Shown piece by piece: positions 1 through 19,744 of a DNA stretch of 20,000 bases. The stretch lies in the IMG/VR virus record IMGVR_UViG_3300034375_008561. One strand, 5' to 3'. The stretch is from an uncultured virus (IMG/VR IMGVR_UViG_3300034375_008561). Lineage: Duplodnaviria; Heunggongvirae; Uroviricota; Caudoviricetes. The notes below the pieces were generated by a model, which had not been told where the DNA came from, ran no database searches, and was given only the letters and a program-made list of their open reading frames with translations. The position numbers and the translations under genes are program-made. Positions within the stretch are counted from its first letter, which is position 1, and every line of letters starts with the position of its first letter.

Positions 1-1
1 T

Positions 2-214
2 CAACAAAAACTTAACAAAGCAAAAACTGAAGCAATTAATAATACAAGCACTGACTTTAGTTATGTTAATGGTAAAATTGTTGATAAGAATGGAAAAGTA
101 AAGATGAGCCCAGCAGAAATAGAAAAAGCAGCAAGAGTTGGAGGATTTTTAAACGCAGATGGAACTGTGAACACAGAAAAGTATTTAGCATCAATAGGTA
201 TAACAACAGAATAA
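2..214 (+). CDS. C-terminal end of an upstream gene (5'-truncated by the window), probable virion/cargo protein
   Basis: Open frame from the window edge: QQKLNKAKTEAINNTSTDFSYVNGKIVDKNGKVKMSPAEIEKAARVGGFLNADGTVNTEKYLASIGITTE, then TAA at 212-214, 3 nt before the next ATG. Codon style matches the downstream genes. Product inferred from context only. Confidence 0.75.
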   Translation, partial: QQKLNKAKTEAINNTSTDFSYVNGKIVDKNGKVKMSPAEIEKAARVGGFLNADGTVNTEKYLASIGITTE

Positions 215-2174: not shown

Positions 2175-5100
2175 ATGGATGAATTTGCAATTGAAGTACT
2201 AAAAGCTAATGGGTATGATTATGACAGTGGTGGAATAATTGATGCAGAAGGTAATTTTCTATCTTCAGTAGAATTAAATGGTAAAACATACACTTCTGAG
2301 GCAGACCCAGTTCTCTGGGAAGAAGCACAACAACCTCAGTATCGTGAAACTGGAGCACCTGACCCTGTACAAGACTTTAGAGGTTTTGAAGCTGACCCAT
2401 TAGGGACTGCACTTACCCCAGCTCAAAAGGAAAATTATCCTATGTATGCTCAAATACAGGAAGAGCAAGGGCTCCCAACTTATGATGATGCAAACATCTA
2501 TGAAAAAGAGATGGAAAGGCAAGCTGAAGAAGAAATGGAAGACCCTTATTATGGTACATTGAGAGAGTTACAGGAAGAAGGACATGAGGGAATTAACGAT
2601 GAGTTAATCAATAAGATAAAAGAAAATGAAAAGTTCATCGCTGAAGTTGAAGCAAAAGACCCAAGTTGGAATGTTAATATAAGAGAGAAGGATGATACTG
2701 ATGAACAAATAGAAGATGCAGCTATGTATAATGTACCAGGTATAGCAGCTGGTTACATAGAAAAAGGAGTAATGGGTCTAGTTAAATGGGCAAACTCAAC
2801 CTTCTATGGTGAGAGTGCTGGTATGAATGGGACTAAAGAAGAAAAATTAGCTTATGAAAAAGCTTTGCAGGATAGAAAAGAAATGAAAAAACCTGCAGCT
2901 AGAATAATGAAAGCTAAGATAGATGAAAAATTAGCTGAGCTTAATCCTGTATGGGAGGAGATGAGTATGTTAGAAACAATTCACCCAGACAATGATATTG
3001 TAAGATATGCAATTAATGAATTAGAGCAAGAGAAAGCTTTAATTGATAACTCAATAGATGAGCAATGGATATTCAATCCTCTTAGTGATAAATATACAAT
3101 TAACACATTAACTGCAGGTTTTCAAGGTGTGATTGATAAATATATGCACTTTCAACCATTAGCTAATAAAGTTACAAAAGGTGAAGAACTTACTGAAAAT
3201 GAACAACTTGCAGCAGAAGCCTTAGGTTTACAAACAAAAACACAAGGTATGCAACTTGAACAACACTGGATGCATGGTTTAACAAAAGGTACTTTTGATA
3301 GTGCAGCATTCTTATATGGTGGTGCAGTAGGTAGGGTTGCAATGAAAGGTGTAACAAAAGCAGTAACCACAGCTGCATCTAAGCAAGTGGGTAATCTATT
3401 TGGTAATATTATAGGAGGAAGTGTAAACATGACTGGACAAGCTATCCTACACCCTGAGTCTCATATTAGAGCAATAGATAAATATTATGGTTCAATTGCT
3501 ATGGATGTTGATGCAGAGGGTAAGCCTGTTTTGACAACAGACAGAAGAACTTATGCTACTCTTATGGAAGAGATGACCCAAAAAGAGGATGAGCTTGAAG
3601 AAATGTTGCTTACTGCAAAAGACCCTGACATGAGAAGAAACCTTCAGGCTGTCTTAAAGAGTACACAAGATATTAAGAATGGATTAGTTGAGCCAGAAAC
3701 CTTGGCTAACTCTATTGGTTATGGATTTACATCAGTTCTTACAGAGAATACTATTGAGAACTACGGTTTAAAGATAGGAAAAGGGTTGATTAAAAACCCA
3801 GTAACAAAAAAATTAGCGTCTAAAAACTGGGTTAAATCAGTAGCTGCAAGTAGAGCTGCTAAAGGAACTGGAGCTGCACTTAATAAAGTGGATAATCTCT
3901 TTATGGGTGTCAAAAGAAAATTCAATGCTATCACAGGAGATGGAGGGTCTAAACTAGTTGGTGGTAACTTTGAAGAAATGGGTGAAGAAGTCGCAACACA
4001 ATTGGTACCTGTTTGGGGAGAAACTGATGAAGAAGCTATTGCAAGAAAAGGTGAACTGCTTGAATTGTCTTTTTATGGGCAAGTAGCAGGGCAAACTCTA
4101 TTGATGGGTGGACTGATGAAAGGTGTTCATGCACCAGCTGCAGGATTATCTGCTCTTCAAAATAGTAGAAATAAAGATGTAAAAAAGGCTAGACAAGCCT
4201 ACAAAGACCTCGTAAAAGAATTTGGAAAAGGAAATATCACAGAGGCTGAGACCCATGAGTTACTAATGAAAGCTGGTGGTGGTAAGTTCACAGTTCAAGA
4301 GTACAACAATAAAATAAACCAGCTAAAAGCCCAAGGTGATTTTGCTGGAGCAGCTGATGTTGAAAGAAATAAGACTTTCAATATTGGTAAGGAAATGATA
4401 AAAAATGGTAAAGGGAAGCAATTTGTTAGAGATATGAATCGCCTTATAGCCAATGGTACTATACCTGCAGAATCTACCCCAGCTGTAATGGAAGCTGTAA
4501 ATGAAATAAAGAAAATGAATGGTGATATGTCTAAGCACGGTGACCTTAGAAATAAGGACTTTGTCTTAGAATTGAAATCCAAGCAACGTTATACTGCAAA
4601 TCAAAAAAAGAAGATAAAAGAAGAAATGACAAGATTGCAGGGTGAAGAAGTTTCTCCACAAAGAGATGGGTCCATTAAAGGGCTAGAGACTGCATTGGCT
4701 AATATAGAAACCTTTGAAGGTCGTCTCAATAAGCAACTAAGACTGGAAACTTCAGAAGCAATGAGAGATAAACTGCAAAAAGAAGCTGAGATTACCCAGG
4801 AACTTGTTAAAAACTACAAAAAACATGAAGGTGACAAGGGTACAGGCTATGTAAAGATTACAAGAAAAGAGGCTATTGATAAGATGGAGAAGAAATATGG
4901 TAATACTATTCAGAGTTCTGTCAAACAAATGGCTAAGAAAAATCTTGATAGATACATTCTTAATGAGACCATTGATGAGCACATGAAGAAGTTTGAGGCT
5001 ATGCCTGCAAACAAACCAAATGAAACCGAAACAAAAGTTGATAATCAAAATCCTCCTGAGGATGGTGCAACACCACCACCAACATCAACTCCACCTGCAG

Positions 5101-8100
5101 AAACACAAGAGGTAACAGCAAAGCAAACAAAGGTTAAAGACCATGTTGATAAACTAAGTAAAAGTATCGATGATGTTACTGCACAATTAGAACAACAGCA
5201 GACATTATTTGATGATGAGGGTAGTCTAAATTTAGCATCCCCTGATACTAATGTACCTCCAACTAAAGAACCAGACACTGACCCTGCAAAGGATGCAACT
5301 CTAGAACAAGCAGAGCTTATGGATACTGCATTCTTTGATGATATGCCAAAAGCATCAGATGGTAAATTTGAAAATGAACCATTCCAAGCTATGGTAGATG
5401 CTGTGAAGACAAGAGTTAAAGAAATGGAAGAAGAAAATGGTGAAGCTCCTACATTTGATGACTATGTTGATGAGATGTTAGAGAATGGTGATGTTGAGGC
5501 AGATGTTATGAAAGGTCACATGAGAGCCCTAGGTTTAGCCTGGGATGGAGCTCAACTAGGAAAATCAAATTGGAAAAAATCTTACAATGAGAGATATGCT
5601 AGTATGGAAGCAATGTTAGCTTTGGATGCAGCAAAAAGAAGTAATGTACCTCCAAAGGTTAAAACTGATGAGGAAATTGTAGAAGAGGAGAAAGAACAAG
5701 AACAAGTGGCAGGTAAGAAGACTAATTCTGAACCTATCACATATAATCCAGACACTGGAGAAGGTTCACATGTTACACCTAATAAGCAAAAACATTACGG
5801 TACAGAACACAAAGCAAACTTCTCTGCTATTCAATATGAAGAGGAGATTACCATAGATGAAAATGGTAAAGAAGTACGTAAAAAAGTCAATGCACCTGTG
5901 CCTCAAGCAAATATGGAGAGTTCTGTTAATTGGTGGGACTTAGTAAATCCTAATAAGAATAACATAGGTGACAAACTAATTCCAACTTTATTAGAGGGAG
6001 AAGAATTAGCAAACACTGATGTAGCTGTTAGAGATGAGAGAGGTATTCAAATACCTGGGAAGTCAGAAACCTTTGAAGCATGGACATTGAGAACCATGGA
6101 GGAAAAATACCCAAGCTTAACATTTGAACAATTTCAAGAAACTCAAGAATATAAGGACAAAGTACCTATGGTCTATAAAGACTCTAATGGAAGCAATGTG
6201 GCTTATGTACCTGAGGTTATGTGGTTTAATGCAAATTCTGTTGGAGACCCAACTGATGTTGAAGAAATCGATTTAAACAATCCAACTGCATATCATCAAA
6301 AACTCATAGACCAAAATAGAGAGCAAGCTCGTGCTTTGAGAAATGGAATTCTATCTGGTGATGTTGTAGGAATGGAGATAGCAGATAATTTGAGTATGCC
6401 TCCATTTATTAAGATGGAGAAGCAAGATGCAGATGGTATGCCCATCCCAACAGCTCCATTAAATCAAATGCATCCTGATACAAGACTTGTTCAAATGAAT
6501 CCAAATGGACAGTTCTATGGATTAGATGGTGTTAGTTTAAAAGATGAACACGCTGACATTATTAACTATGGAGATGATAAGTCAGGTTTAGGTAAAATGG
6601 AGATGAAGCAGCAAGGAAAAGCTAAATCCCAAGTAGCAACTAATAAAGGACACTACTATGCTCTTAGTTTTATAGGTATGAAAGATGGTAGAAAACAATA
6701 TATAGCTATTGAACTTAATAGAAAGAAAGAAGATGGGCTTACAGATGGAGCTCATAAAGACGATATAGAAACTGCAAGATGGATTGCAGCCACAAATAAA
6801 ATTACAAAATTCCCTAATTCTCCAGTTGGGGATAATGATACTCACCCTAATCACATGACTAAGACTGAGGCTGAGGCTTTGAGAAGACAAATCCTGGAGG
6901 TAACTGGTATTGATGTAAAAGATAAGTATGCTGATATGCTTGAAGCTAGAGTTGCACACCATTTAGGTGGGTTTTCCAAAAAGACAACCTTTGGTAAAGA
7001 CACCATAGGCATGCTATTAGGATTTAATGAAACTGCAGGGACATATACAAAACCTGACAGTGAGTGGGTAAGTAACATGAAGTTTAAGTTTAATGCTCCA
7101 ATGGTTACTATTAAAAGGAATCCTGACAGGTCATTTGAAGTTAAGCTAGTTGAGATAACACCTAAAACAGTAAATGGTGAAAAAGTTACTCAAGCTAAAA
7201 ACTATGAAGATTTCTTAAAAGAAAGACTATCAAGTAATGTAATGGGATTCAATGTAGGTACTGAGGCAAACCCAGTGTTTACAGCTGCACCTCAACAAAG
7301 ATATAAACTTACACCTATACTTAAAGACAAAACCCTTGAGGACCACAAAGAGACCTTTAAACAAGAGGTAGAGGATTTGAAACAAGATGAGAAGGTAGAG
7401 AAGAAAACAACTGAAGTTGAAACAAAAGATGCTCCAGTAGTAGCTGATACTAAGATTATTGATAAGGCTAAGCGAAAAGAAGCAATGACTCAAGCTGCAG
7501 CTCTTGCTAAAAGATTAAACCTCAACATTGAAGATATTTCAGAAATCGATAACTTAGTTGTTGCAGAAATGGCTACAACTGAGCAGGTTGAAAAGGGAAT
7601 ACTAAGTACTCCTGGCTTAACTATCAAGCAAGAAGAACAAGTTGTAGACTGGTTATTCAGTCAGTTATCATCAAAAGAAGGAACTTATGAGGATGCAAAG
7701 CACAGAATTAGTGGAATCTTAACTCTTAATGTTGAAGAACTAAACCAATCAATCTCTGACCTTCAAGCATTTAAAGATAACCCAGTTGTCCTTCAGATGA
7801 TTTTGAACATGGAACAAGCTGTAGAACAGCAAACTGAAGTACTTAATTCACTAGATGAATTGGTAGCTGAAGCTGGACTAAGAGCAGTGAACGTTGATTT
7901 TGTCTCAGAAGAGTTTGATGTAGAAGAATGGGAAGAGAATATTAAAGATTTCTCAAAAGGTGCAGGAGAAGTTAAATCTATTGATAAAGTAGGAACTGCA
8001 TTGAAAAGAATCTTTGCTCAAGTTTCTGATGGACAAACAGGATTTATGGGACTTGAAACATTCCCTGGATTCAAAAGGATGTATGACACAGTTACTTTAG

Positions 8101-11100
8101 CTTTGTCTGCTGATACAACCTTAGAGCCTAACTTTGAACAAATGATGGAGATTCTGAAGAAGAGAAAAGATTCCACACCTTGGATGACACCTCTTATTGA
8201 AGCTCTGGAAGCTTCTGATAAACAAACACAGAATCAGTTTGTCTACAATACATACCAGCAAAAAGTATATGCAAAGTTTGCAGCATTGTCTATGAAGAAC
8301 AAAGCTATTGATAGTAGAGTCCTGGATAGTAATGCAAATGAAGCAAAGAGACAAATTCAAGAAAAATGGAGAGAAAACTTCAAGAGGTCACCTATTAATA
8401 ATGAAGGTCTAATAGATAAAGGAGCACTTGGAGTAGTAATAGAAGAATGGAATAGATGGCAAGAAGAAGGTGTAGAAGCTCAATCAGATGAGGTACTACA
8501 AAACTTCTTATCTAAATTTGGTATTGAATTATCACAAGGAACATGGGATGCTCTTAGAGCAAATGAATTAAATGTATCTGAAGGTGGTGGAAAATTAAAA
8601 GTTGCTGAGTTCAAGGACCTATTTAGTGGATTAACTCCAGAAAGTAGCTCAAACAGAACTGGTTTCTTATTTACTAACCTAGTTAAGTATGCATTGCTGA
8701 ATGAAAGCAAGAAAGGTGATATTGAATTCTATGAAGCAACAGACAATCACCCTTTCAAACAAATGTCAACAATTCTTAATCAGCTCAGTGAACTAGAGGC
8801 TAAATACAATCCAACTTATGGTGGTACTTCTAGGTATGTTGCTGGTAAGTCTGTGACTGAAATGGAACAGTTTACATATTTCTATGAGCAATTCAAGAAA
8901 TTAAAGAACAGTGCTAAAGGAGACAAAGCAGAGATAGCAAAGCTTCAGAACTTAAGCTTCTCTCAAGACTCATTCCTTTTAGACTTACTTACAAATGACC
9001 CTGTTTTTGCTGAGCAATTCCAACATGGACTAATAGATTTGATGGCTCTTAAAGAGTTGTACAAACAAAGCCCATTACAAGCAGGTATCGATGAATTAAG
9101 TGGAGTAGATTATAGATTTACTCAACGAGCTTTATTCCAAGATAGAAAGCAAGGTTCAGAAAGAACAGTTGAAGGACAAGATTTTGATATAAGAATGGCA
9201 CACATGAATACCTTGACTAATTCAGACAAGGGAAGAATGATGTTATTGAAGACAGCAGTCTTTGATTTCTACAAGCAATCTGGTAAAGCATTTAAGATAG
9301 AAGATGGAGAAGTTACTTTTACAGAAGAGCTTAACAATCTCCTTTACAAGCAATTAGTGATGCCTGAATTGCGTAGAATAGTGAATTATATCAACAATGG
9401 TAATAAATCAACTATTGATAGTTATGATGCAGGAGCCACAAGATTTAACATCCTATCAGAATTAAACACTCTGACAGATGCAAATGGGTTAACTTTTGTT
9501 GAAGCAATAGTAGCTGAGCTTGATAAAAATGGAGGTAATGTAGAAACAACTTTAACAGAGATTGAGAAAGAATTCAAAGGCAAGTCTACCAAAGTTCTTG
9601 AACAGAATGTAGTTAGAGAGGCTAAAGATAATGTAAAAGACATTTCTGAGTTTGCTAAAAAGAAAGACCAGTTTAATAACGCTGACTATTTAGCTAAGAG
9701 AGAAGGAACTGTTCTAGAAAATATGTTAGTAGCAGAGTTAGACTTTACATTAAACTCTATGCTAACAAATATGAATTACATGCAAATGATGACAGGGGAC
9801 CCAGCTTTATACTATAAGAAACATCGTTCTGATGAGGTTGCTGAGTTGAATGATTCAGTAGCACAAGAGAAAATGTCTCAAAGATTAGCTATAAACTTAG
9901 GGAAAAGAATGGCAGCAATGATTGCTCCAGGTTCTGTCCTAGCAGATTCTCATGACAATAAATACATCCAAGTCTTTTTAGATGATATGAATGGTCCAAC
10001 AGAAAACTTGCTGGACATCATAGAGATGCATTATGGAGAGAAAGCAGGTGACATCCAGCTGAGTGATGGTGTGTCTGTTAGAGAAGCAGTAGAGCTAACA
10101 AAAAAGGGAACTAGAGATTATGTTAAACAGCTGGAAGCTGAATTCCCTAGAATAGCAGAATTTATAGACATAGAAAGTACAGATGCTCAAGAGTATACTA
10201 CCTTAGAAGAACACCTACATGTGATGGACAAACAAGGTCGTATATCTCAAAAGTTAATGACAGACATAAAAGACAAGATAAAAAAAGGGGAAGACTTAAC
10301 CAAAGAACAACTGGACATTGTCATGCAACCTATCAAACCAGTCTACACAGGAACACAATTCGATGCAGATAATGATGTTAATAGGATGATGTACATTAAG
10401 TCCAGTTCTTTTCCCTTAATTCCTCAGCTTACAAAAGGTAGAGAATTAGATAAATTAAGAGTGAATATGGAAGAGGTTGAAGCATCTACTGGTAAAACAG
10501 TAAGAGCTGCCTATCATTCTGCAGTAAAAGTAGGTGGTATGGTAAGTGAAAACAGAATTAAAAGTTTTGACCAACCAATCCTACCTCAAAATACTTTGAC
10601 ATTGAACAGAGAGCATTTCAAAATACAGCAGGATGTACCATTCAAATCAAAAGAAATTCAAGATGATAAAGTATCTATGGGTACTCAAATCTTTAAATTG
10701 CTTATGGGTGATGGTATAATGGAGATGGACGGTTTCATGTACCAAGGTAAGCCAGTGACAGGAAAACAACTTCAAGCTGAATTCCATTCTGTTTTTGCAG
10801 AAATGGTAGGTATGAAGAAGGATAAATTCCTTAGAAGTCTAGGCTATGATGAGAACATGGAGACTAAGGACCCAGTTAAGACTATGCAGAAGCTAGAGGC
10901 TCTTCTTAAGAAAGAGGCTAAAAGCAGAGGATTTTCTAAGCAGGATTTAAAAATCTTAGACTTAGTTGATGGAGCAAGTGGTAAGACTTTCAAGCTACCA
11001 TTATGGTTGACAGGGAATAGTAATAAGTATGAATCGATGCTTAATGCTATGATTAACAATAAAATCTTTAAGCAAAAAATACCAGGAAACAAGTTCGTTA

Positions 11101-14100
11101 CTGGGTCTGAAGCAGGTTTTCAGGTTCAAGAGAATATGGAAGGTATTGACAAGAGTAGAATTGTCCATTTAGGTAATTTCAATGGTGATGTACTTCAAAG
11201 TGGTAAGATAATAGAAGGAGAGATGCAGAAAGCACAGGTCCTACTTCCATCTAAATTCAAATTAGGTGGTAAACTTATTGACCTATTTGAAGAGTTTGAT
11301 AATGATAAAGGTGATGGTGTTTACTTAAAAAGAGGTTCTGATGGAGTTGTTAGGGTAAAAGAGCACATGGTTGATAAGAAATTGTTAGAGCAGTTTACTT
11401 TCAGAATTCCAACATCCTCACATGGACTTGGGTCATCTATTGAAGTTGTAGGTTTCTTACCTCCAGAAAGTGGTGACTTAATTGTTACACCTAAAGGCTT
11501 TATTGCTCAGATGGGACAAGATTTTGATATTGATAGCTTAACAGCTTATCAGTATAATCATATTGTGATGGCTACAAATACTGAAAACTATTCAGAAGGT
11601 AGCATTCATTTATTGACAGAAGAAACCAGAGAGGCTTTTGTACAGGAGAAAGAATTCCTGTTGAACACACTGAGAGATGAGATTAAGAAGGATGGACTAG
11701 GGAAGATTATAGTTTCTGCAGCTCCAACAGTGGAGAAACCAAATAATGCTTTGATGGCAACACTAGCTCTAGTCCAAGAGACTGGAGCCAGAACAGAGAA
11801 AGAGATACTTGATGAGATTGATTTCCAAAAATCAGAACTTAGAAAAGATTTTGATTTGAAATTACTTGAGAACAAGTTTATTGAGATACACAATTCAGTG
11901 TATTCAAATCCTCAGGCTCAGAAGCAGATACAGAAAGTATTATCAATGGCAACAGCTGAACAACAAGCTGATGAAATCCAAGCTCTTCAAATAGGGTCAG
12001 GAAACTCATTTAATATTTTATCACCAAGGTACCAACAAATGAAACTTAATGCTGGTTCTACTGGTCAAGTTGCTATTGGTATCTATGCAAAAGGACTTAC
12101 ACTACATAGTTTGGTTCAACAAGCAAGTGCAGATGGTAGTCTAATTAGATTGGGTACAACAGACAGATTTGGAAAAGAGCATGTGAAGAAAGTAACAATT
12201 GGAAACTTGCATAGTGAAGGAGTTCTAGGACGAACAGATAGCATTAAATCTAAAGGAAAAGAATTTGACGGGTTTACAAGACGTATATCTACAATCTTAG
12301 ATGAGAGAGCAAATACTGCAACAGATAATGAGAAAGCACAAATATTAGGTAGAACAGGACTAAATTATAGAAGTGCTATTGGAGTTGATAGTTTATTATC
12401 CATGCTAGGCTTTGACCTTGAGTACACTAGAATTACTAAGGATGAATATATAGAAGGAGCACCTTTCCACAGAAAGGCAGAGATAGATGGAAATTCAGTG
12501 TATTATTTAGAGCACTCTTTACCTTACTTGTTACACTCACAGCCAATCATAAGAGAATACTTTGAGCTTATTGCTAAGAAAGGGTCTCAAACAACTGACT
12601 TTAGTGCAGATGCTAAAAAAGAGGCTCAACTTGCAATGCTTAAAAAATATGGAGAACAAGACCAAGAATTTTTTGATGGAAAAGTTGTAAGATGGGCACA
12701 AGATGGAGAGAAGAGAATTCCTCTAAGTGACCAGGATAACACTAAATTCACTTCTAAATTCTTAGCTGACCAAATAGAACTTAATGGAGCAGAGAATAAA
12801 ACATCTCAGTTACAGATATTAGCTTTGTATGTTGATTTGATAAACCAATCAGAGAAACAGAGAGAGATGATGTCACATGTTGACTTACAGAACTTAGGAA
12901 AATCTATGTGGGAGTCTACAACAAGAGCTAAAGAATTTAGAAAATACTTCTATTCTGCACAGAATAGAGGAATGCTTGGAGCTGAAAAGCTAATAGGTAG
13001 AGTAGTTCGTCAATCAACAGACCCAAATCAAATACCTTTAGGTGATGGTCTCATATTAGAGCCAACAACTAACCAGGGTGTTATGGTAGGTACTGCTTTA
13101 GGATTAAGTGAAGCACTGTTTACAAATGTATTCCCTGCAAAGAATGTTGCTTTAAATAATATGATGGATGACTTAATTGCAAAGAGTAATGTTAATGTAG
13201 ATAACATCAATACTCTTATTGATGCAAAAGAGAAAGTATTTCAAGAGGTTAAAAAATACTTAACCTCAGCAAAACAATTAGGTATCTTTGGTAAGAGTGC
13301 AAGTGAAGTTAGAAGAGAATTGATGACAGATAGAGAAGGTAACCAATCCTTGAGTAGTTATATTGGTAACATGATGACTTCTAAAAGTACAGAACATGCA
13401 GATGGTATTCAAGCAGTACAAACCAATTTGTTCCTAAACTTACTTAAAACAGTCAAAGGTGAAAATGGTAAGCCATCTTTATTGACCTTCAATAATAATG
13501 AATCATTTGAAGCTAATCAAGAAGCTATCTATGCTTCCTTTAAGGAGCTGATAGCTGAAGATAAGACTTTACCACGGGTTATGAGAAATGGAAAATCTGA
13601 GTACTATTCTACTAGAATTCTAGCTCAAGAATTGATTGCATATTCTTATGCTACTGGAGGTGTTGTACAAGGAGCAGTTCAGTTCCACAAGTTCTTACCT
13701 ATTGAGTATCTTGATGATATGACAAGGACAAATAAGAGAGGTGTGACATCAACTATTAGTGAGAACATGAGAAAATTCAATTCTTTCCATAATGAAGTTC
13801 CATTACCAATGGAATTAGAACAGTTTGAAAGACAATATTTCCAGAATAATCCTGACAAGGTGCCACAGAGTAAAATGAAAGAGATAAAGTTAGAGGATGG
13901 CACAGTACTCTATGAGACTTTAGAAAAAGCTGGTGGGCAATACCTTGCTGTAAGACAACAAACAAAAAGCAAGTTGAAGTCAGACAAGTGGAAATTATAT
14001 GAAAAAATTATAGTAGAGGACAGTGCATCATCAAAACTATACAGAGAAATCAGTGTCTTAGGTGATACAGGAATGACTGAATATGAATTTGGTCTAGAAG

Positions 14101-15188
14101 AATTGTCAAGTGTGGTTAATGAAAAGGTAGCTCCAATACGAGATATTGAGGCTTTAGAAATGGAGACCATATCAGATGAAAAAATGGGTGAAATTCCTGC
14201 TGATGGTAGTACAATAGTTTCTTTCTTAGATGCCATTGAGAATGGAGAGTATGGAGAATATGGTAATGTAAGAGAAATTGCTAAGTACTTAAAACAATTC
14301 GTAACAGATGACCAAGTGTTTACCTATACTAAGGCAGATGTTGCTGGTAGAGTTATAAATGGGCACTTAACTCTGAACCCTGATAACATACCCAACAGAA
14401 ATATACTTGCTCCAACTTTTATCCATGAAGTAGCACATGTCATAACTCAGAAACTTGTAAATCAGCATTTAGATGAGTTTGGAGAGCTTAAGTCAGGAGC
14501 ACCTGCAGAATTGGTAGGATTGAATAATGTATTGACAGAATACAAGAAGCAAATTATAGCTGATAATCCTGTGGAGTGGGAAAAATTCCAAGAGAAATTA
14601 ATTAAGTACAAAGAGGCAGCAAAACAGAATATACCTTGGGATGGTGTCTTCACACAGATGGAGCTTGATACTTTCTACCCTGCTACAAATCTACATGAAT
14701 TCATAGCTACTAGTTTAGGTAACAATCAAGAGTTCATCAAGAAAGCTAAATCGATGTCTTACCTTGAAAGTGGACAGACTATTATGCAAAAATTTGGTTC
14801 TCTCATTACTAATTTCATAAAAAGAATAGGTAAAATGCAGGGAATTCCAGAAAATAGCGTAGCTTTGCAAGCAATTCAAAGAAGTATGGGCGTAGTAGAA
14901 GCAGCAAACAGAGGAAGATTAGCAGAAATTGCAGAAAAAGTTGAAGCTCAAAAAGAACCTGATTTAGCCCATGATGAAACAGCTCACCTAGTCGAGAAAT
15001 TTAACCAACAAGAACCTGACTTTGATGAAAGTTTCTATCAAGGATGGGACCAAACTCCAGATAACTTAGGTGACCCAACTAAAGACAACACAACAGAAAA
15101 TACAGGAGACCCAAGCAATGACATAGCTGATGAGAATTCAATCTCTATGTTACCTGTAATGATTAGAACTAAAAATAAATGTAATTAA
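2175..15188 (+). CDS. Giant (4337 aa) virion-packaged DNA-dependent RNA polymerase of crAss-like type, with an N-terminal ejection-protein-like region and a C-terminal zincin metallopeptidase domain
   Basis: Catalytic motif GQDFDID (DFDID aa 3116-3120, nt 11520-11534) preceded by FRIPT (RIP nt 11403-11411). First-barrel motifs TDAQ (nt 10179-10190), QPIKP, YIKSS and SAVKVG. Candidate bridge-helix GQVAIGIYA and trigger-like TATDNEK. HEVAH at nt 14424-14438. Confidence 0.92.
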   Translation: MDEFAIEVLKANGYDYDSGGIIDAEGNFLSSVELNGKTYTSEADPVLWEEAQQPQYRETGAPDPVQDFRGFEADPLGTALTPAQKENYPMYAQIQEEQGLPTYDDANIYEKEMERQAEEEMEDPYYGTLRELQEEGHEGINDELINKIKENEKFIAEVEAKDPSWNVNIREKDDTDEQIEDAAMYNVPGIAAGYIEKGVMGLVKWANSTFYGESAGMNGTKEEKLAYEKALQDRKEMKKPAARIMKAKIDEKLAELNPVWEEMSMLETIHPDNDIVRYAINELEQEKALIDNSIDEQWIFNPLSDKYTINTLTAGFQGVIDKYMHFQPLANKVTKGEELTENEQLAAEALGLQTKTQGMQLEQHWMHGLTKGTFDSAAFLYGGAVGRVAMKGVTKAVTTAASKQVGNLFGNIIGGSVNMTGQAILHPESHIRAIDKYYGSIAMDVDAEGKPVLTTDRRTYATLMEEMTQKEDELEEMLLTAKDPDMRRNLQAVLKSTQDIKNGLVEPETLANSIGYGFTSVLTENTIENYGLKIGKGLIKNPVTKKLASKNWVKSVAASRAAKGTGAALNKVDNLFMGVKRKFNAITGDGGSKLVGGNFEEMGEEVATQLVPVWGETDEEAIARKGELLELSFYGQVAGQTLLMGGLMKGVHAPAAGLSALQNSRNKDVKKARQAYKDLVKEFGKGNITEAETHELLMKAGGGKFTVQEYNNKINQLKAQGDFAGAADVERNKTFNIGKEMIKNGKGKQFVRDMNRLIANGTIPAESTPAVMEAVNEIKKMNGDMSKHGDLRNKDFVLELKSKQRYTANQKKKIKEEMTRLQGEEVSPQRDGSIKGLETALANIETFEGRLNKQLRLETSEAMRDKLQKEAEITQELVKNYKKHEGDKGTGYVKITRKEAIDKMEKKYGNTIQSSVKQMAKKNLDRYILNETIDEHMKKFEAMPANKPNETETKVDNQNPPEDGATPPPTSTPPAETQEVTAKQTKVKDHVDKLSKSIDDVTAQLEQQQTLFDDEGSLNLASPDTNVPPTKEPDTDPAKDATLEQAELMDTAFFDDMPKASDGKFENEPFQAMVDAVKTRVKEMEEENGEAPTFDDYVDEMLENGDVEADVMKGHMRALGLAWDGAQLGKSNWKKSYNERYASMEAMLALDAAKRSNVPPKVKTDEEIVEEEKEQEQVAGKKTNSEPITYNPDTGEGSHVTPNKQKHYGTEHKANFSAIQYEEEITIDENGKEVRKKVNAPVPQANMESSVNWWDLVNPNKNNIGDKLIPTLLEGEELANTDVAVRDERGIQIPGKSETFEAWTLRTMEEKYPSLTFEQFQETQEYKDKVPMVYKDSNGSNVAYVPEVMWFNANSVGDPTDVEEIDLNNPTAYHQKLIDQNREQARALRNGILSGDVVGMEIADNLSMPPFIKMEKQDADGMPIPTAPLNQMHPDTRLVQMNPNGQFYGLDGVSLKDEHADIINYGDDKSGLGKMEMKQQGKAKSQVATNKGHYYALSFIGMKDGRKQYIAIELNRKKEDGLTDGAHKDDIETARWIAATNKITKFPNSPVGDNDTHPNHMTKTEAEALRRQILEVTGIDVKDKYADMLEARVAHHLGGFSKKTTFGKDTIGMLLGFNETAGTYTKPDSEWVSNMKFKFNAPMVTIKRNPDRSFEVKLVEITPKTVNGEKVTQAKNYEDFLKERLSSNVMGFNVGTEANPVFTAAPQQRYKLTPILKDKTLEDHKETFKQEVEDLKQDEKVEKKTTEVETKDAPVVADTKIIDKAKRKEAMTQAAALAKRLNLNIEDISEIDNLVVAEMATTEQVEKGILSTPGLTIKQEEQVVDWLFSQLSSKEGTYEDAKHRISGILTLNVEELNQSISDLQAFKDNPVVLQMILNMEQAVEQQTEVLNSLDELVAEAGLRAVNVDFVSEEFDVEEWEENIKDFSKGAGEVKSIDKVGTALKRIFAQVSDGQTGFMGLETFPGFKRMYDTVTLALSADTTLEPNFEQMMEILKKRKDSTPWMTPLIEALEASDKQTQNQFVYNTYQQKVYAKFAALSMKNKAIDSRVLDSNANEAKRQIQEKWRENFKRSPINNEGLIDKGALGVVIEEWNRWQEEGVEAQSDEVLQNFLSKFGIELSQGTWDALRANELNVSEGGGKLKVAEFKDLFSGLTPESSSNRTGFLFTNLVKYALLNESKKGDIEFYEATDNHPFKQMSTILNQLSELEAKYNPTYGGTSRYVAGKSVTEMEQFTYFYEQFKKLKNSAKGDKAEIAKLQNLSFSQDSFLLDLLTNDPVFAEQFQHGLIDLMALKELYKQSPLQAGIDELSGVDYRFTQRALFQDRKQGSERTVEGQDFDIRMAHMNTLTNSDKGRMMLLKTAVFDFYKQSGKAFKIEDGEVTFTEELNNLLYKQLVMPELRRIVNYINNGNKSTIDSYDAGATRFNILSELNTLTDANGLTFVEAIVAELDKNGGNVETTLTEIEKEFKGKSTKVLEQNVVREAKDNVKDISEFAKKKDQFNNADYLAKREGTVLENMLVAELDFTLNSMLTNMNYMQMMTGDPALYYKKHRSDEVAELNDSVAQEKMSQRLAINLGKRMAAMIAPGSVLADSHDNKYIQVFLDDMNGPTENLLDIIEMHYGEKAGDIQLSDGVSVREAVELTKKGTRDYVKQLEAEFPRIAEFIDIESTDAQEYTTLEEHLHVMDKQGRISQKLMTDIKDKIKKGEDLTKEQLDIVMQPIKPVYTGTQFDADNDVNRMMYIKSSSFPLIPQLTKGRELDKLRVNMEEVEASTGKTVRAAYHSAVKVGGMVSENRIKSFDQPILPQNTLTLNREHFKIQQDVPFKSKEIQDDKVSMGTQIFKLLMGDGIMEMDGFMYQGKPVTGKQLQAEFHSVFAEMVGMKKDKFLRSLGYDENMETKDPVKTMQKLEALLKKEAKSRGFSKQDLKILDLVDGASGKTFKLPLWLTGNSNKYESMLNAMINNKIFKQKIPGNKFVTGSEAGFQVQENMEGIDKSRIVHLGNFNGDVLQSGKIIEGEMQKAQVLLPSKFKLGGKLIDLFEEFDNDKGDGVYLKRGSDGVVRVKEHMVDKKLLEQFTFRIPTSSHGLGSSIEVVGFLPPESGDLIVTPKGFIAQMGQDFDIDSLTAYQYNHIVMATNTENYSEGSIHLLTEETREAFVQEKEFLLNTLRDEIKKDGLGKIIVSAAPTVEKPNNALMATLALVQETGARTEKEILDEIDFQKSELRKDFDLKLLENKFIEIHNSVYSNPQAQKQIQKVLSMATAEQQADEIQALQIGSGNSFNILSPRYQQMKLNAGSTGQVAIGIYAKGLTLHSLVQQASADGSLIRLGTTDRFGKEHVKKVTIGNLHSEGVLGRTDSIKSKGKEFDGFTRRISTILDERANTATDNEKAQILGRTGLNYRSAIGVDSLLSMLGFDLEYTRITKDEYIEGAPFHRKAEIDGNSVYYLEHSLPYLLHSQPIIREYFELIAKKGSQTTDFSADAKKEAQLAMLKKYGEQDQEFFDGKVVRWAQDGEKRIPLSDQDNTKFTSKFLADQIELNGAENKTSQLQILALYVDLINQSEKQREMMSHVDLQNLGKSMWESTTRAKEFRKYFYSAQNRGMLGAEKLIGRVVRQSTDPNQIPLGDGLILEPTTNQGVMVGTALGLSEALFTNVFPAKNVALNNMMDDLIAKSNVNVDNINTLIDAKEKVFQEVKKYLTSAKQLGIFGKSASEVRRELMTDREGNQSLSSYIGNMMTSKSTEHADGIQAVQTNLFLNLLKTVKGENGKPSLLTFNNNESFEANQEAIYASFKELIAEDKTLPRVMRNGKSEYYSTRILAQELIAYSYATGGVVQGAVQFHKFLPIEYLDDMTRTNKRGVTSTISENMRKFNSFHNEVPLPMELEQFERQYFQNNPDKVPQSKMKEIKLEDGTVLYETLEKAGGQYLAVRQQTKSKLKSDKWKLYEKIIVEDSASSKLYREISVLGDTGMTEYEFGLEELSSVVNEKVAPIRDIEALEMETISDEKMGEIPADGSTIVSFLDAIENGEYGEYGNVREIAKYLKQFVTDDQVFTYTKADVAGRVINGHLTLNPDNIPNRNILAPTFIHEVAHVITQKLVNQHLDEFGELKSGAPAELVGLNNVLTEYKKQIIADNPVEWEKFQEKLIKYKEAAKQNIPWDGVFTQMELDTFYPATNLHEFIATSLGNNQEFIKKAKSMSYLESGQTIMQKFGSLITNFIKRIGKMQGIPENSVALQAIQRSMGVVEAANRGRLAEIAEKVEAQKEPDLAHDETAHLVEKFNQQEPDFDESFYQGWDQTPDNLGDPTKDNTTENTGDPSNDIADENSISMLPVMIRTKNKCN
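9174..9190 (+). repeat. 17-bp exact direct repeat GGACAAGATTTTGATAT (second copy 11514-11530, in the RNAP catalytic motif)
   Basis: Both copies read directly. They are in the same frame, both encode GQDFDI and lie 2340 nt apart. Confidence 0.8.
10140..12345 (+). other. Catalytic core of the two-barrel (double-psi beta-barrel) RNA polymerase within the 4337-aa ORF
   Basis: Ordered motifs: ESTDAQ (D at 10182), K in QPIKP (10335), K in YIKSS (10398), SAVKVG (10518-10535), RIP (11403-11411), DFDID (11520-11534), AIGIYA (~12072-12089), ATDNEK (12318-12335). The order fits phi14:2 gp66 / QDE-1-like polymerases. Confidence 0.85.
14210..14840 (+). other. Zincin-like metallopeptidase domain (HExxH plus distal E) at the C-terminus of the vRNAP protein
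   Basis: AGRVINGHLTLNP strand region, then TFIHEVAHVIT (HEVAH aa 4084-4088) and NLHEFIATSLGNNQEF (E aa 4175, nt 14697-14699, candidate third Zn ligand). Domain boundaries are approximate. Confidence 0.8.
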
Positions 15189-15190
15189 AT

Positions 15191-18100
15191 ATGGCAAGAT
15201 GTGATATACAATTGAAAGAGGTAACTGACTTAGTCAACAAAAAGTCTGAAGAAGTCATTGCACTACTTTCAAATAAATCTCTTAAGGAAGCTAAAAGACT
15301 AGCACCCATAATGAATGATAGACATTTCTATGGAGCAAGAGTAATACAGGTGCCTAAAGCTCTAGGCACTACACCAGTAGTTATAGCAGACAAAGCTATG
15401 CTTGCTGAAGCAATAGAGAATAAGATTACTGATGATGAAAAATATGAGATGGAAGAAAGAATGGCTGAGCTTGAAGCAGGGCAAAACTATGCAACTCTAG
15501 ACATGTTGCCTTCAGGTATGAAGACCTACAACAAATTTAATTATTCCAATGTCTTGAACAACAAAATAATTCTCAAAGCCAAACTAGAGGCTCAGCGTAA
15601 CTTGATTAAGAATAAGAAACGTGATAAGCAACAATTAAGACAGGTTGAATACTTAAATAATACTATCAAAAAGTTAGCACAAGATATAAAACATCTTAGG
15701 ACAGCTGATGAGAGCTTAGAAGTTTATCTTAATAGTGTTGCTAGAGATGTAAGAAATGTTAAGGCATTACTAAAGAATCCTACTATTGATAACATTCAGG
15801 CTATTGGAACTTACATTGAGGTACTAGAGAATATAACAAAAAAGTCAGGGTCTGAAGGAAATGGATTCCTTATGGATGACATTGACACTATTGAAGAAGA
15901 CAACCCAATAATTTTTGAGCAGCTCAAAGAGACTATTGATGAGATTAACTTACTGAGACAAAAGCAAAATATAGCTCAAGAAAGAATGACTAGAGAGCTA
16001 ATTAGGAACTACTTAAAGAATACTAAAGGTGCAAACAACTGGGATGAATTAGATTTAGATGATGCAGTAGAGGCTCATTATAAAGAACAATTTGAATCCA
16101 ATAGAGAAATGGCTATGGGTCTTCAATATGTTACAGGAATGGATGAGCAAGAGAAGAAAAATATTATTGTTTCTGCAATCTATAAGACTTATGCAGATGC
16201 TCTAACCCAAAGTAATATGAAGGACAAGAGAAAAGCCCTTGATGATATTAAAGATGAGGTTAAAGCTGAACTCATTAAATTAGGGCACAGCACAGGAAGG
16301 ATGTTTAGAAAGGTTGCTAATCAAAATATATTTTTAAGAAAAAATACAAGTGCACATCAATTGATTGGTAAATTCTCTTCTGCCTGGGTAGCATTCCAGA
16401 ATAAGATGAAAACAGAGAATGAGAGAATAACACAAAATATTCTCTATGACCCAAAGAAAACTTCTGATGAGGTAGAGCTTATCAAAAAGACTTTTCAAAA
16501 GTTAGATGCTAACGTTGATTTTTTTGATGTTACTCTGGTTCCTGAAATCATAGAAGATGATACATTACAACACCATAAAGAATTCTTTGGTGACATAAAA
16601 GAAGCAGAAGCTTATCGAGATAAGTTAGTAGCTAAGATAGGACAAAGGGAATATGATAAGCTAAAAGATGATGCAATGCAAAAGATATTCTCTTATGATA
16701 TCTTTCTAGAACAACAAGAAGCTAGATTGTTAGAGAGACGAGAACAAGCAAAAAATAACCCCAAAATACCGTGGAATGAGGAGACCCATGTAAATAGAGA
16801 TTTACATTATTCATACTCAAAAAATCCATTCATATTTGCTAAGACCTACAAAGATACAGGAAGCAACCAGATTAACAAGCACTATACTGTCAATGGAGAA
16901 AAGAAATTTACTAATACTCCTGCTGATATGGAATTTATTTCATACTCTCCCAAGCATGAAAGTTACTTTGACCAAGACTTCAAAGAAATTGAAAATAACC
17001 CAGTACTAAACAAGGCTTGGGGAATTATGGCTGACCTTGTAGAGTTCAATAATCAAAATGGATTTAATAATTCACCTAATGATTTGAATGAGTACAGTTT
17101 AGCAGCTATGCAAAAGAAATTAAAGCAAATGCCTCTAAGTAAGCTTAAGTTGATGGGAAGGAAAGTCTTAAGTCATTTACATAAGAATGTGACAGCAGAG
17201 AGGGAAATGGATGAAAACATTGATAATCAATCCAATCAAGTTAGTGGTAGTAGAAACTTAGTTGATAAGCAGATAAAACAGTTATATAAGTCAAAAATTG
17301 CACAGTATACTAAGCCTGATAAAAAGACAAAAGAGACAGTTATGCAAGAGGCAAAAGCTCAGATATTAGAGAGACAAAACCCTGACTTAATGGATAACAT
17401 CCTGACTGCCACTAGAATGACTGAGGTATTTAAAGCAAAAAGAGAAGTTGAAGCTGAAGTTCTCTTCTTAAGAAATCAGCTACAAAAGGTAAAAGATAGA
17501 GCTGCATTTAAAAAGATAACAGATTTCTTCATCAACAAAGAATTCTATGGTATTAATAATAGACAGCACTGGGGTTGGCTTAATGTCCCTCCTGTTGAAG
17601 GAAGAGCAAGATGGTTTTCTGAACATGAGAAAGATATTAGAACTGAATCAAAGGCATCTATTAAAGCTCTTCAAGAAAGACTTAAGACAGAGACTGATGA
17701 TATGATTAGAGCAGACATACAAAGAGAGATTGCTGCTTTTGAAGAGTTTTTAGAGTCTGGTGGTAGAGTACTTACTGGAGGCTCTGTGGTTGAAGCAATA
17801 CTTATTAAGTCTACAAGAGTTGTAGCATTCTCAGTTAACTTTGGAGCACAGGCTACAAACAAAGTTATTGCAGATGTTAATGCTTGGGAAGTAGATGGGA
17901 GAGAAGGCTTTTGGTCAGCAGGTGCTTACCATGACTCTAAATCTTTCTCAAGAAAGTGGAAAGAATATGGTGGCAATTTAGAAACAAAACGACAAATTAA
18001 AATAGGAGACCTATTATTACAGAGATTAGAGGTATTCCAAAATAGTTCCAATGAGATATTTAAGCTGGAAAAATCAAAAGCAAAGAATGCTTTGTTGGCA

Positions 18101-19693
18101 ATATTAGAAAATCCAATGAACTTAGTGAGTGAGGTTGAGAAAACAATTCAGAGACCTCAAATTCTTGCTATGTTATCTGAGATAGATATACAAGGTGTAG
18201 ATGCCAATGGCAATCCTATAACTGTAAAGATGTGGGATAGAAAAACAAGAAGTTTTCCTGCTTTTACAGAAGTTGATGGTGCACTAGAATTAGCTGAAGG
18301 GTTTAAGTCTAAAGAAAATATTGATACATACCTTCTTAATAATTCACAAGAATACTCCAATCTCTTTGGAGATGCTGGTACAATACCTAGAAATATTGCC
18401 TTTATAAATGGTGATTACCGTGAAACTAGTACATACTTATTTGAAAAGAATATGCTAACTGCTTTGGCAATGCTATTTAAAAGATGGTCTGTTGCAACAG
18501 TTAAGAAGAAACTTAGTATGTATCAAAGACTAGGAGAAAATAAGTCAGGAGATTTAGCTACAATTGCAACTGCAATGAAAGGTGGGACAGTTATGTTAGC
18601 TTCAGGGACTCTCCTTGGTCCCATTGGTGGAATTATTGGACTTTCACTTTATGGTGCAAGTGTAGGGAGAAGAGTTTATAAAGCAAAATTAAAAGCTGAT
18701 AAGATAAAAGCCACTGAAGCAGGGATGCATTTAAAGAATACCCAAGTTACGTGGTATAAAAGAAAAGGTTTTGTAAAAAGACAAATGGTTGCAAGTGCTA
18801 GACTTTCTATGGCAGCTTCTGCCACAGCTTTATCTATGATTATAAGTCCATTTACAAAGAAACAATACATAAATAGTGACAAAATAAAAAGAATAATGGA
18901 TGTCAGAGGTCTCAACGAATTAGATGGGACTGAAGTTACAGACAAAGAAATTAGACAAATTGAAGATGATTTATATTTCTTGACAACTTCAGTTGCTTCC
19001 ACTTTAAAGTTTCTTGCAATGAGAGCTTTAGTTATGTTAGCCCTTTACCCAGGGGAAGATGAAGAGAAGGAGCATAAAGAAAGAGTTGCAAGAGGAGATT
19101 TGTTTTGGTCAAGAATGGCTGCTGACCCAGATACTGCTCTATATTATACCTTAGAAAATATGTTCTCTGGATTCATACAAGATGCAAACATGCTATTCAA
19201 TATAAATGGTCTAGTTAGAGAGGGAGATGTATTTGGAGCTAAAAAGCTAGGTATTATGGCAAATGACCTTGAAAGTATAGCACAAGGTAATGCAGAGTTA
19301 AAGAGTGGGGAAAACAAGGGTAAAAACAGATTCTGGACTCACCTCTTTAAATATTATACTCCTGCAGCTATGAAAGATGGGATGTCAATGGGATTTGGGT
19401 CAAAATCTAAGAGAGATTATAATACTCAAAACTGGATTGACCAACTCAAGAGACCTAAAATTGAAAAAATAAATAGTGCTAGACTTGAAGCTAGAGAAAA
19501 ACATAAGAAAGCTTTGGAAGAATCCAGCTTGTGGTCTAATATGACTGAGAAACAAAGAAATCTTCAGATATCACGAGAGCTATCAAAGATGTTTCCTGTT
19601 GTTAGAGACGAAGACATGTATGATGATGGTTTCCCTGATATCAATAAAAGATGGAAATGGAAGGACTATTATGATGATGGGTATGGAAACTAG
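15191..19693 (+). CDS. 1500-aa large virion cargo/ejection protein with C-terminal hydrophobic (putative membrane) helices
   Basis: Starts 2 nt after the vRNAP stop. Largely helical, with hydrophobic segments at ~18554-18667, ~18785-18853 and ~18971-19051. The NGDY...LAMLFKRW segment (18407-18487) resembles C-terminal regions of large crAss-like virion proteins. Ends with TAG. Confidence 0.75.
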   Translation: MARCDIQLKEVTDLVNKKSEEVIALLSNKSLKEAKRLAPIMNDRHFYGARVIQVPKALGTTPVVIADKAMLAEAIENKITDDEKYEMEERMAELEAGQNYATLDMLPSGMKTYNKFNYSNVLNNKIILKAKLEAQRNLIKNKKRDKQQLRQVEYLNNTIKKLAQDIKHLRTADESLEVYLNSVARDVRNVKALLKNPTIDNIQAIGTYIEVLENITKKSGSEGNGFLMDDIDTIEEDNPIIFEQLKETIDEINLLRQKQNIAQERMTRELIRNYLKNTKGANNWDELDLDDAVEAHYKEQFESNREMAMGLQYVTGMDEQEKKNIIVSAIYKTYADALTQSNMKDKRKALDDIKDEVKAELIKLGHSTGRMFRKVANQNIFLRKNTSAHQLIGKFSSAWVAFQNKMKTENERITQNILYDPKKTSDEVELIKKTFQKLDANVDFFDVTLVPEIIEDDTLQHHKEFFGDIKEAEAYRDKLVAKIGQREYDKLKDDAMQKIFSYDIFLEQQEARLLERREQAKNNPKIPWNEETHVNRDLHYSYSKNPFIFAKTYKDTGSNQINKHYTVNGEKKFTNTPADMEFISYSPKHESYFDQDFKEIENNPVLNKAWGIMADLVEFNNQNGFNNSPNDLNEYSLAAMQKKLKQMPLSKLKLMGRKVLSHLHKNVTAEREMDENIDNQSNQVSGSRNLVDKQIKQLYKSKIAQYTKPDKKTKETVMQEAKAQILERQNPDLMDNILTATRMTEVFKAKREVEAEVLFLRNQLQKVKDRAAFKKITDFFINKEFYGINNRQHWGWLNVPPVEGRARWFSEHEKDIRTESKASIKALQERLKTETDDMIRADIQREIAAFEEFLESGGRVLTGGSVVEAILIKSTRVVAFSVNFGAQATNKVIADVNAWEVDGREGFWSAGAYHDSKSFSRKWKEYGGNLETKRQIKIGDLLLQRLEVFQNSSNEIFKLEKSKAKNALLAILENPMNLVSEVEKTIQRPQILAMLSEIDIQGVDANGNPITVKMWDRKTRSFPAFTEVDGALELAEGFKSKENIDTYLLNNSQEYSNLFGDAGTIPRNIAFINGDYRETSTYLFEKNMLTALAMLFKRWSVATVKKKLSMYQRLGENKSGDLATIATAMKGGTVMLASGTLLGPIGGIIGLSLYGASVGRRVYKAKLKADKIKATEAGMHLKNTQVTWYKRKGFVKRQMVASARLSMAASATALSMIISPFTKKQYINSDKIKRIMDVRGLNELDGTEVTDKEIRQIEDDLYFLTTSVASTLKFLAMRALVMLALYPGEDEEKEHKERVARGDLFWSRMAADPDTALYYTLENMFSGFIQDANMLFNINGLVREGDVFGAKKLGIMANDLESIAQGNAELKSGENKGKNRFWTHLFKYYTPAAMKDGMSMGFGSKSKRDYNTQNWIDQLKRPKIEKINSARLEAREKHKKALEESSLWSNMTEKQRNLQISRELSKMFPVVRDEDMYDDGFPDINKRWKWKDYYDDGYGN

Positions 19694-19702
19694 TGGTATG
19701 AG

Positions 19703-19744
19703 AAAAAAATAGGGTAGCCTAACATGTCTGTTAAGCTACCCTAT
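19703..19744 (-). terminator. Rho-independent terminator for minus-strand transcription
   Basis: On the minus strand: ATAGGGTAGCTTAACA-GACA-TGTTAGGCTACCCTAT followed by TTTTTT. This is a 16-bp stem with one G.U pair, a GNRA loop and a U-tract, about 20 nt after the TAG of the convergent gene. Confidence 0.85.

Follow-up and report, generated by a model that had tools for sequence, protein, structure and literature searches.

Paired terminal cysteines at the junction between a giant virion RNA polymerase protein and its neighbour in crAss-like phages, and their probable role in an end-to-end disulfide

We analysed a window of 20,000 nucleotides from an uncultured virus (IMG/VR record IMGVR_UViG_3300034375_008561), corresponding to bases 10274-30273 of a 52-kb viral record (G000) that is estimated to be approximately half complete. 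The window is best explained as the cargo (ejection-protein) block of a marine crAss-like phage, in which a giant protein of 4337 amino acids, here called B, carries the virion RNA polymerase (RNAP) and is preceded by protein A (648 amino acids) and followed by protein C (1500 amino acids). Among viruses of the human gut the crAss-like phages are the most abundant, and they also occur commonly in the sea. Near-absence of cysteine (Cys) is known for phage proteins that are injected through the cell envelope. We found that A, B and C hold two Cys in all, which face each other across the B/C junction, and we consider it probable (roughly 0.7) that Cys4336 of B and Cys4 of C are kept for an intermolecular disulfide joining the C-terminus of B to the N-terminus of C. 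Comparison of homologs shows that the terminal pair is under strong selection and tracks the breaks in the polypeptide chain, whereas the disulfide nature of the link is what we infer, by analogy, from a cryo-electron microscopy (cryo-EM) structure of cyanopodophage A4 and from other disulfides in crAss001 virions.

Two lone cysteines at facing chain ends

A preliminary description of the window, in which Cys had been counted by eye, proved exact when the counts were repeated by script: there is none in A, one at residue 4336 in B and one at residue 4 in C, giving 2 Cys among 6485 residues, with the residue numbers and TGT coordinates as described and no internal Cys overlooked. The chain of B ends with '...RTKNKCN*' and that of C begins with 'MARCDI...'. 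When the open reading frame (ORF) of 575 amino acids that precedes A is included, the count becomes 2 Cys in 7060 residues over four consecutive genes; the gene before them, encoding 1944 amino acids, holds 16, and the Cys content of 148 control ORFs, taken from G000 and 12 related loci, is 1.00%. The probability that random placement would put two lone Cys at most 2 and at most 4 residues from the facing ends is approximately 1.2e-6.

Conservation of the terminal cysteines

A search with the last 838 residues of B retrieved 28 proteins with 26-100% identity, 25 of which, down to 26% identity, have exactly one Cys, always as the penultimate residue. The other three are P0029 (3903 amino acids, no Cys) and P0035 and P0036 (approximately 5,900 amino acids each), the last two being discussed below as fusions. 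On the other side of the junction, nine C homologs (46-65% identity) each have a single Cys, at position 3 or 4. A profile search with C against 1.84 billion cluster representatives gave 123 matches, and the 84 of these that are 1400-2100 amino acids long were counted; 82 of the 84 have Cys at positions 2-8. Taking these representatives together with the nine closer homologs, Cys lies among the first 8 residues in 89 of 91 full-length C homologs (at position 3 in 49, position 4 in 29 and position 5 in 8) and is the only Cys in 70 of the 89, all other Cys amounting to 37 in 145,312 residues (0.0255%). The 39 matches outside the count are mostly fragments and include P0036; nine of them, including P0061, start with Cys at positions 3-5, which we take to be the N-terminal signature of the family. 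Among the control ORFs, Cys was present at positions 2-6 in 4 of 148 (2.7%) and in the last four residues in 11 of 148 (7.4%).

The N-terminal Cys rule touches two annotated starts that appear to be too early, those of cr110_1 gp40 (L017 10770) and of XHH63389 of bajarodcaudo virus 1 (L022 20937). Later starts, at the second Met ('MSCTVKI') in the former and at the third in-frame Met ('MAKSCAII') in the latter, fit both the rule and the alignment with relatives.

Cysteine pairs at split junctions across crAss-like phages

We found the terminal Cys pair at all 26 split junctions in crAss-like phages for which both sides were visible, the upstream Cys lying 1 to 9 residues from the C-terminus and the downstream Cys at positions 3 to 5. 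These junctions comprise those of 12 contigs of the wider lineage of the window (including FpV4, with 22% identity), those of the named phages phi14:2, crAss001, DAC15, p-crAssphage, cr110_1, cr8_1, cr4_1, cr118_1 and bajarodcaudo virus 1, and that of contig L008. Some of the 26 rows are near-duplicates, the ends of L004 and L006 being identical; five contigs (L009, L012, L028, L003 and L024) that would have repeated rows already counted were left out. The expectation that the two terminal Cys would be conserved and would occur together across crAss-like homologs was therefore borne out at B, at C and at the junctions between them.

The number of pairs follows the number of breaks. In phi14:2, crAss001 and DAC15 the chain is cut in three and there are two pairs. 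For example, in phi14:2 g067 ends in its only Cys, g066 (2180 residues) carries Cys3 and Cys2179, and g065 carries Cys3 alone; in crAss001 the lone Cys of gp47 is the third-last residue, gp50 carries Cys5 together with a Cys as its ninth-last residue, and gp49 carries Cys5 alone; in DAC15 the pairs are arranged as in crAss001. In p-crAssphage, cr110_1 and cr8_1 the first junction is split and has a pair, and the second is fused. The arrangement in cr4_1 and cr118_1 resembles that of the window.

Such pairing statistics fit any direct contact between the ends of B and C, and the residues conserved around the Cys (LLPxM..KNKCK in B and MxxCKEQ in C) fit a docking of the two ends. As the preliminary description allowed, the two thiols might share a metal ion such as zinc, the termini docking non-covalently. 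However, a metal is poorly held by just two thiols, neither end showed a conserved His or an additional Cys nearby, and in the one solved case with the same terminal-Cys signature, that of A4, the link is described as a disulfide (PMC12002296, in part); we regard shared metal as an unlikely account of the pair.

Constraint on the protein and not on the DNA

The two TGT codons are 18 bases apart and have similar ATGT(A/G)A contexts, both in the window and in its close relatives, as might be expected if a signal at the DNA or translation level (for example, one for translational coupling) merely happened to encode Cys. The wider comparison does not agree with such a signal. The paired proteins gp47/gp50 of crAss001 and gp078/gp076 of DAC15 are encoded on opposite strands, the spacing of the B and C genes in relatives varies from an overlap to 29 bases, and the 38 junction codons comprise 32 TGT and 6 TGC. 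Because of the opposite strands, the variable gaps and the replacement of TGT by TGC, a DNA-level junction signal is excluded; and since the spacing varies, there is no fixed reading-frame relation between B and C. The pair is kept across the longest gap, that of 29 bases in FpV4, and at 22% protein identity, and the chance estimate is of the order of 1e-6 for the window alone. Chance, or a nucleic acid signal, is thus effectively refuted as the source of the pair.

Two further candidates were rejected. A fusion of B and C by read-through or frameshifting was ruled out by the spacing and frame, which differ among relatives. A lipoprotein-type Cys in C was set aside because no hydrophobic, signal-peptide-like stretch precedes it, as judged by eye from the first residues of C, without a predictor.

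Natural fusions, new splits and negative controls

P0035 and P0036 contain B and C in one chain. P0035 has no Cys, and the single Cys of P0036, residue 2048, is distant from the B-C junction; the '..LLPDCI*' ends of the nearest split relatives align with 'VLPDMPLDD...' of P0035, in what is a loose tail alignment. That the pair should be lost where the genes are fused had been predicted, and both terminal Cys are indeed missing from these natural fusions.

The converse was seen in L008 (P0061), a member of the fused lineage that is split at a new place, at approximately residue 3050 of the fused protein, with a 5.9-kb block of four tail-fibre-like genes parting the halves. The upstream half has gained an acidic tail ending in '..DLMGCLWQ*', which contains the sole Cys in 1361 visible residues, and the downstream half begins with 'MAIKCLK'; the old B|C junction in this contig is still fused and free of Cys. 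No intron signal was found at the L008 split. The tail-fibre-like ORFs of the block (L008 4637-9307) encode 224, 204, 478 and 483 amino acids, the last two being alike by eye.

Breaks of other kinds served as negative controls. In bajarodcaudo virus 1, the apparent split of the RNAP gene (L022 17308-18188) is due to an endonuclease gene flanked by matches to a group I intron (RF00028, 47 and 32 bits, both under the gathering score of 50), and the apparent ends of this interrupted gene have no Cys pair. In L030, two frameshifts (at approximately 6072 and 15405, in the giant gene and the next gene), which could be assembly errors or signs of decaying genes, likewise have no Cys pair at the broken ends; the true B|C junction of the same contig has one ('..NIKRC*' followed by 'MSCRLNY'). 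A search for fused forms of 2640-5000 amino acids found none, a weak negative since the actual fusions exceed 5000 amino acids. We estimate that at least 4 independent fissions or fusions are represented in these data. The joining of one C-terminus to the next N-terminus, as first proposed, came through all of the comparative tests suggested for it; the bond itself is still supplied by analogy.

Evidence against the disulfide reading

Several observations weigh against a B-C disulfide. In crAss-like phages it rests on analogy, and the A4 proteins gp27 and gp26 could not be related to B and C, hmmsearch giving no hit at E<=10 and hhalign giving probabilities of 0.2% and 0.8%; because there is no detectable homology, the A4 precedent is an analogy only. 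The homolog counts overstate the number of independent events because many rows share ancestry, and all fusions that span both junctions belong to a single lineage, in which P0035, P0036 and P0061 are 50-59% identical. There are also exceptions in each family. P0029, in the B family, stops approximately 350 residues early and has no Cys. In the C family, P0102 has no N-terminal Cys and its first 120 residues are divergent, so that it may be a real exception to the rule; for P0090, which also has no N-terminal Cys, the alignment with its nearest relatives begins at their residue 13, and for this reason its start has probably been called 12 residues late. The distance from the upstream Cys to the chain end is 9 residues in crAss001 and bajarodcaudo virus, and 11 residues in cr10_1, for which the partner was not visible. 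Gut phages in which the second junction is fused carry several internal Cys, and therefore say little on pair loss.

In addition, some cargo proteins have a lone terminal Cys that has no facing partner in the adjacent genes translated, namely the 598-amino-acid protein of FpV4 (L007 2607-4403, Cys5), p-crAssphage gp47 (L014 795-3368, penultimate) and cr8_1 gp90 (L021 457-4005, Cys5). The homolog in the window, encoded by the 575-amino-acid ORF, has no Cys. The lone-Cys cargo proteins may have further links to other proteins.

Lone ends of this kind fit an arrangement in which the terminal Cys form homotypic disulfides (B-B and C-C) or anchor each protein to another part of the virion, for instance the portal, an inner capsid protein or the tail. 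The particle has room for several copies of each cargo protein and other inter-protein disulfides occur in crAss001 virions (both from the parts of PMC10172136 drawn on here), and sequence alone cannot show the bonding partner of each terminal Cys. However, neither homotypic bonds nor anchoring would predict the joint loss of both Cys on fusion or the appearance of Cys on both new ends of the new split in L008, and the same signature is heterotypic in A4 (PMC12002296, in part). This arrangement appears improbable to us, although a little less so than the shared metal ion, and the heterotypic B-C disulfide is the reading that we carry forward.

Proposed mechanism

We propose that the heterotypic disulfide would form in the assembled particle, would hold B and C together and in order during ejection, and would be broken by reduction once in the host cytoplasm, so that the polymerase is released. 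The linked product, of approximately 5,800 residues, would have the same topology as the natural fusions, the effect of the bond being equal to that of a peptide bond. Because both Cys are only a few residues from the chain ends, the linked product would be nearly linear and unbranched, and could therefore pass the portal and tail channel in a partly unfolded state. The order would follow the protein module and not the gene map, since the paired genes of crAss001 and DAC15 are on opposite strands.

A broader proposal, for which the odds seem to us somewhat short of even, is that throughout the order Crassvirales the RNAP module is delivered as one quasi-linear thread of approximately 5,800 or more residues, in which peptide bonds and end-to-end disulfides are interchangeable in evolution and from which cytoplasmic reduction would release the active polymerase. 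If this is true, genes can split, fuse or switch strand and leave the injected product unchanged. Several giant proteins (150-500 kDa each) have to pass in order through a narrow tail. A covalent, reducible end-to-end tether would explain the joint packaging and fixed exit order of the cargo proteins, the tolerance of gene fission, fusion and inversion in the RNAP module, and why the absence of Cys from injected proteins is broken at just these points. The rule may also help annotators to find the true starts and partners of cargo genes, as with the two database starts that looked wrong.

Genes and other features of the window

The coordinates of the features are collected in Table 1. Residues 2654-3308 of B matched 6vr4_A with an E value of 5.1e-13, identifying a two-barrel RNAP homologous to phi14:2 gp66, and D3116, F3117, D3118 and D3120 of the DFDxD motif, a motif that is also named in 10.1101/2020.03.07.982082, are invariant in 19 homologs. 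The label of virion RNAP given to B at the outset was therefore right, in view of the gp66 match and the DFDxD motif, with the qualification that B also corresponds to g067 by size and position: its counterpart is phi14:2 g066 plus, by size and gene order, g067, fused into one chain. The B profile matched g066, and only the g066 portion was detected, g067 not being found. C groups with the 'RNAP-associated' protein family (phi14:2 g065 / crAss001 gp49), and the 575-amino-acid ORF, judged by position, opens the Cys-free cargo block.

Table 1. Features of the 20,000-nucleotide window (positions as numbered in the window)
Feature	Position	Strand	Remarks
3' end of Cys-free ORF of 575 amino acids (G000 8760-10487)	1..214	+	0 Cys in 575 amino acids
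Protein A, 648 amino acids, Cys-free, phrog_14670	218..2164	+	Cargo-type; precedes giant gene as in FpV4
Giant protein B, 4337 amino acids, phrog_16227 'virion structural protein', sole Cys at residue 4336	2175..15188	+	
RNA polymerase core of B, residues 2654-3308	10134..12098	+	Match to phi14:2 gp66 (PDB 6VR4)
DFDxD catalytic motif, B residues 3116-3120	11520-11534	+	Within RNA polymerase core
HExxH (zincin-like) motif, B residues 4084-4088	14424..14438	+	Approximately 250 residues ahead of terminal Cys
Acidic low-complexity tail of B, residues 4259-4324	14950..15145	+	18 D/E vs 3 K/R in 66 residues
Conserved end of B, 'SMLPVMIRTKNKCN'	15144..15185	+	Family consensus LLPxMxxTKNKCK
TGT, Cys4336 of B, penultimate and only Cys	15180..15182	+	Invariant in 19/19 homologs
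B/C junction: stop TAA, 2 bases, ATG of next gene	15186..15193	+	
Protein C, 1500 amino acids, phrog_14721	15191..19693	+	Groups with homologs of phi14:2 g065 / crAss001 gp49
TGT, Cys4 of C, sole Cys	15200..15202	+	Invariant in 31/31 aligned homologs

The tail of B at approximately 14950-15145 had been described as acidic and probably disordered. Its acidity was confirmed; its disorder is suggested by composition, disorder-favouring residues making up 71% of residues 4259-4324, and the tail is probably a flexible leash.

The HExxH motif of B, in which H4084, E4085 and H4088 are invariant, raises the idea of a 'cysteine switch', in which the terminal Cys would cap the zinc of a zincin-like domain and keep a protease latent until ejection. 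In most of the phages checked the motif is within approximately 250 residues of a Cys junction: HExxH is located 180-255 residues ahead of the terminal Cys in B of the window, FpV4, p-crAssphage gp45, cr110_1 gp39 and crAss001 gp47, and 245 residues after the N-terminal Cys in phi14:2 g065. However, pairs are present at junctions with HExxH in neither protein (phi14:2 g067|g066 and crAss001 gp50|gp49), HExxH is missing from all three DAC15 proteins, the new ends in L008 are far from the motif, and a switch requires one Cys, whereas a facing pair is retained here. A switch therefore seems very unlikely, clearly more so than homotypic or metal-mediated contacts, and an end-to-end disulfide remains our preferred explanation of the pair. 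The protein that hosts HExxH differs between phages, as if a small domain travels with the junction, and this domain might process the fused forms.

Among cultured phages, the closest are the Flavobacterium phages of the FpV4 group, and their gene order is the same. The block of G000 consists of ORFs of 1944, 575, 648, 4337 and 1500 amino acids, and that of FpV4 of 598, 732, 4287 and 1596 amino acids behind a large structural protein that is cut at the locus edge; the order of G000 is also present in cr4_1, cr118_1 and L027. All conform to the order of the crAss-like module, that is, a large structural protein, two mid-size cargo proteins, the giant RNAP protein or proteins, and the RNAP-associated protein. 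Other searches were uninformative. Pfam gave no match for B or C, a profile of the C family matched PDB entries at chance level only, a search of a protein atlas gave unnamed viral clusters and weak LPD38/LPD39 leads only, and no match was found when the junction DNA was searched against phage records or in a single-protein scan of viral contigs.

A 13-bp inverted repeat (GGGTAGCCTAACA / TGTTAAGCTACCC) with one mismatch and a 4-base loop occupies 19712-19741, where it separates gene C from the convergent genes on the minus strand, and is probably a two-way terminator. Thioredoxin-family genes are annotated near the RNAP block of several gut crAss-like genomes (L014 26185-26463 and 27183-27452, L021 28333-28602, and L022 11822-12067). 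In cr4_1 (L018), the table-11 translations of the cargo genes gp24, gp25 and gp27 contain in-frame stop codons; stop-codon reassignment has been described for some crAss-like phages.

Comparison with known systems

The end-to-end disulfide had at first been thought undescribed, which has to be corrected, since one structural example is in print: in the pre-ejectosome of cyanopodophage A4 (Anabaena phage A-4L), Cys1715 of gp27 and Cys5 of gp26 were seen by cryo-EM to be disulfide-bonded (PNAS 2025, PMC12002296, in part). The mechanism is therefore not wholly new. In the A-4L genome, the sole Cys of gp27 (1717 amino acids) is residue 1715 and that of gp26 (1114 amino acids) is residue 5; as in B and C, a sole Cys lies near the upstream C-terminus and another near the downstream N-terminus. 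The two genes are adjacent and both products are ejected; according to the passages of PMC12002296 drawn on here, the bond stabilises a folded 'mortise-and-tenon' assembly. The A4 pair differs in that it includes no RNA polymerase and forms a single link only, and the same passages speak neither of a chain nor of a rule tied to gene fission and fusion, nor of crAss-like phages.

Further close systems are gp67-gp66-gp65 of phi14:2 and gp47-gp50-gp49 of crAss001, in which the gene order around the module and the terminal Cys pairs are as in the window. The window differs in that the first two proteins are one chain, and for this reason it has one pair instead of two. The proteins of both modules are reported to be present in virions and to be translocated into the cell (10.1101/2020.03.07.982082 and PMC10172136, in part). 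The three proteins of the phi14:2 module are reported to be fused in some phages (10.1101/2020.03.07.982082), and gp47, gp49 and gp50 of crAss001 are placed in the cargo zone of the capsid and are said to have to unfold partly to exit (PMC10172136); the crAss001 data of the latter paper come from both reduced and untreated virions. A term look-up in 10.1101/2020.03.07.982082 found no occurrence of cysteine, Cys or disulfide; one in PMC10172136 found no occurrence of cysteine, and disulfides only for gp57 and the tail proteins, for which that paper describes inter-protein disulfides in crAss001 virions. Its supplements, apart from a picture-only file that was not searched, contain no text on gp47, gp49 or gp50, and full-text searches combining crAss-like phages with cysteine, cargo or RNA polymerase found no description of the terminal Cys.

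The other parallel is with the N4-like phages (Schitoviridae). The preliminary description noted that the N4 virion RNAP has no Cys, which is linked to its passage through the periplasm, and the parts of PMC11445570 and PMC2784036 drawn on here confirm this for the N4-like virion RNAPs (gp50/gp71) and their partner ejection proteins, with Cys at approximately 0.9-1% in the rest of the N4-like proteome. In both systems an injected giant RNAP and its neighbours are strongly depleted of Cys, the four genes in the window at 2 in 7060 residues standing against the 1.00% of the controls. However, the N4-like RNAP is a T7-like single-subunit enzyme, and the N4-like proteins are reported to have essentially no Cys, whereas that of the window is of the two-barrel type, with one Cys at each of the facing ends.

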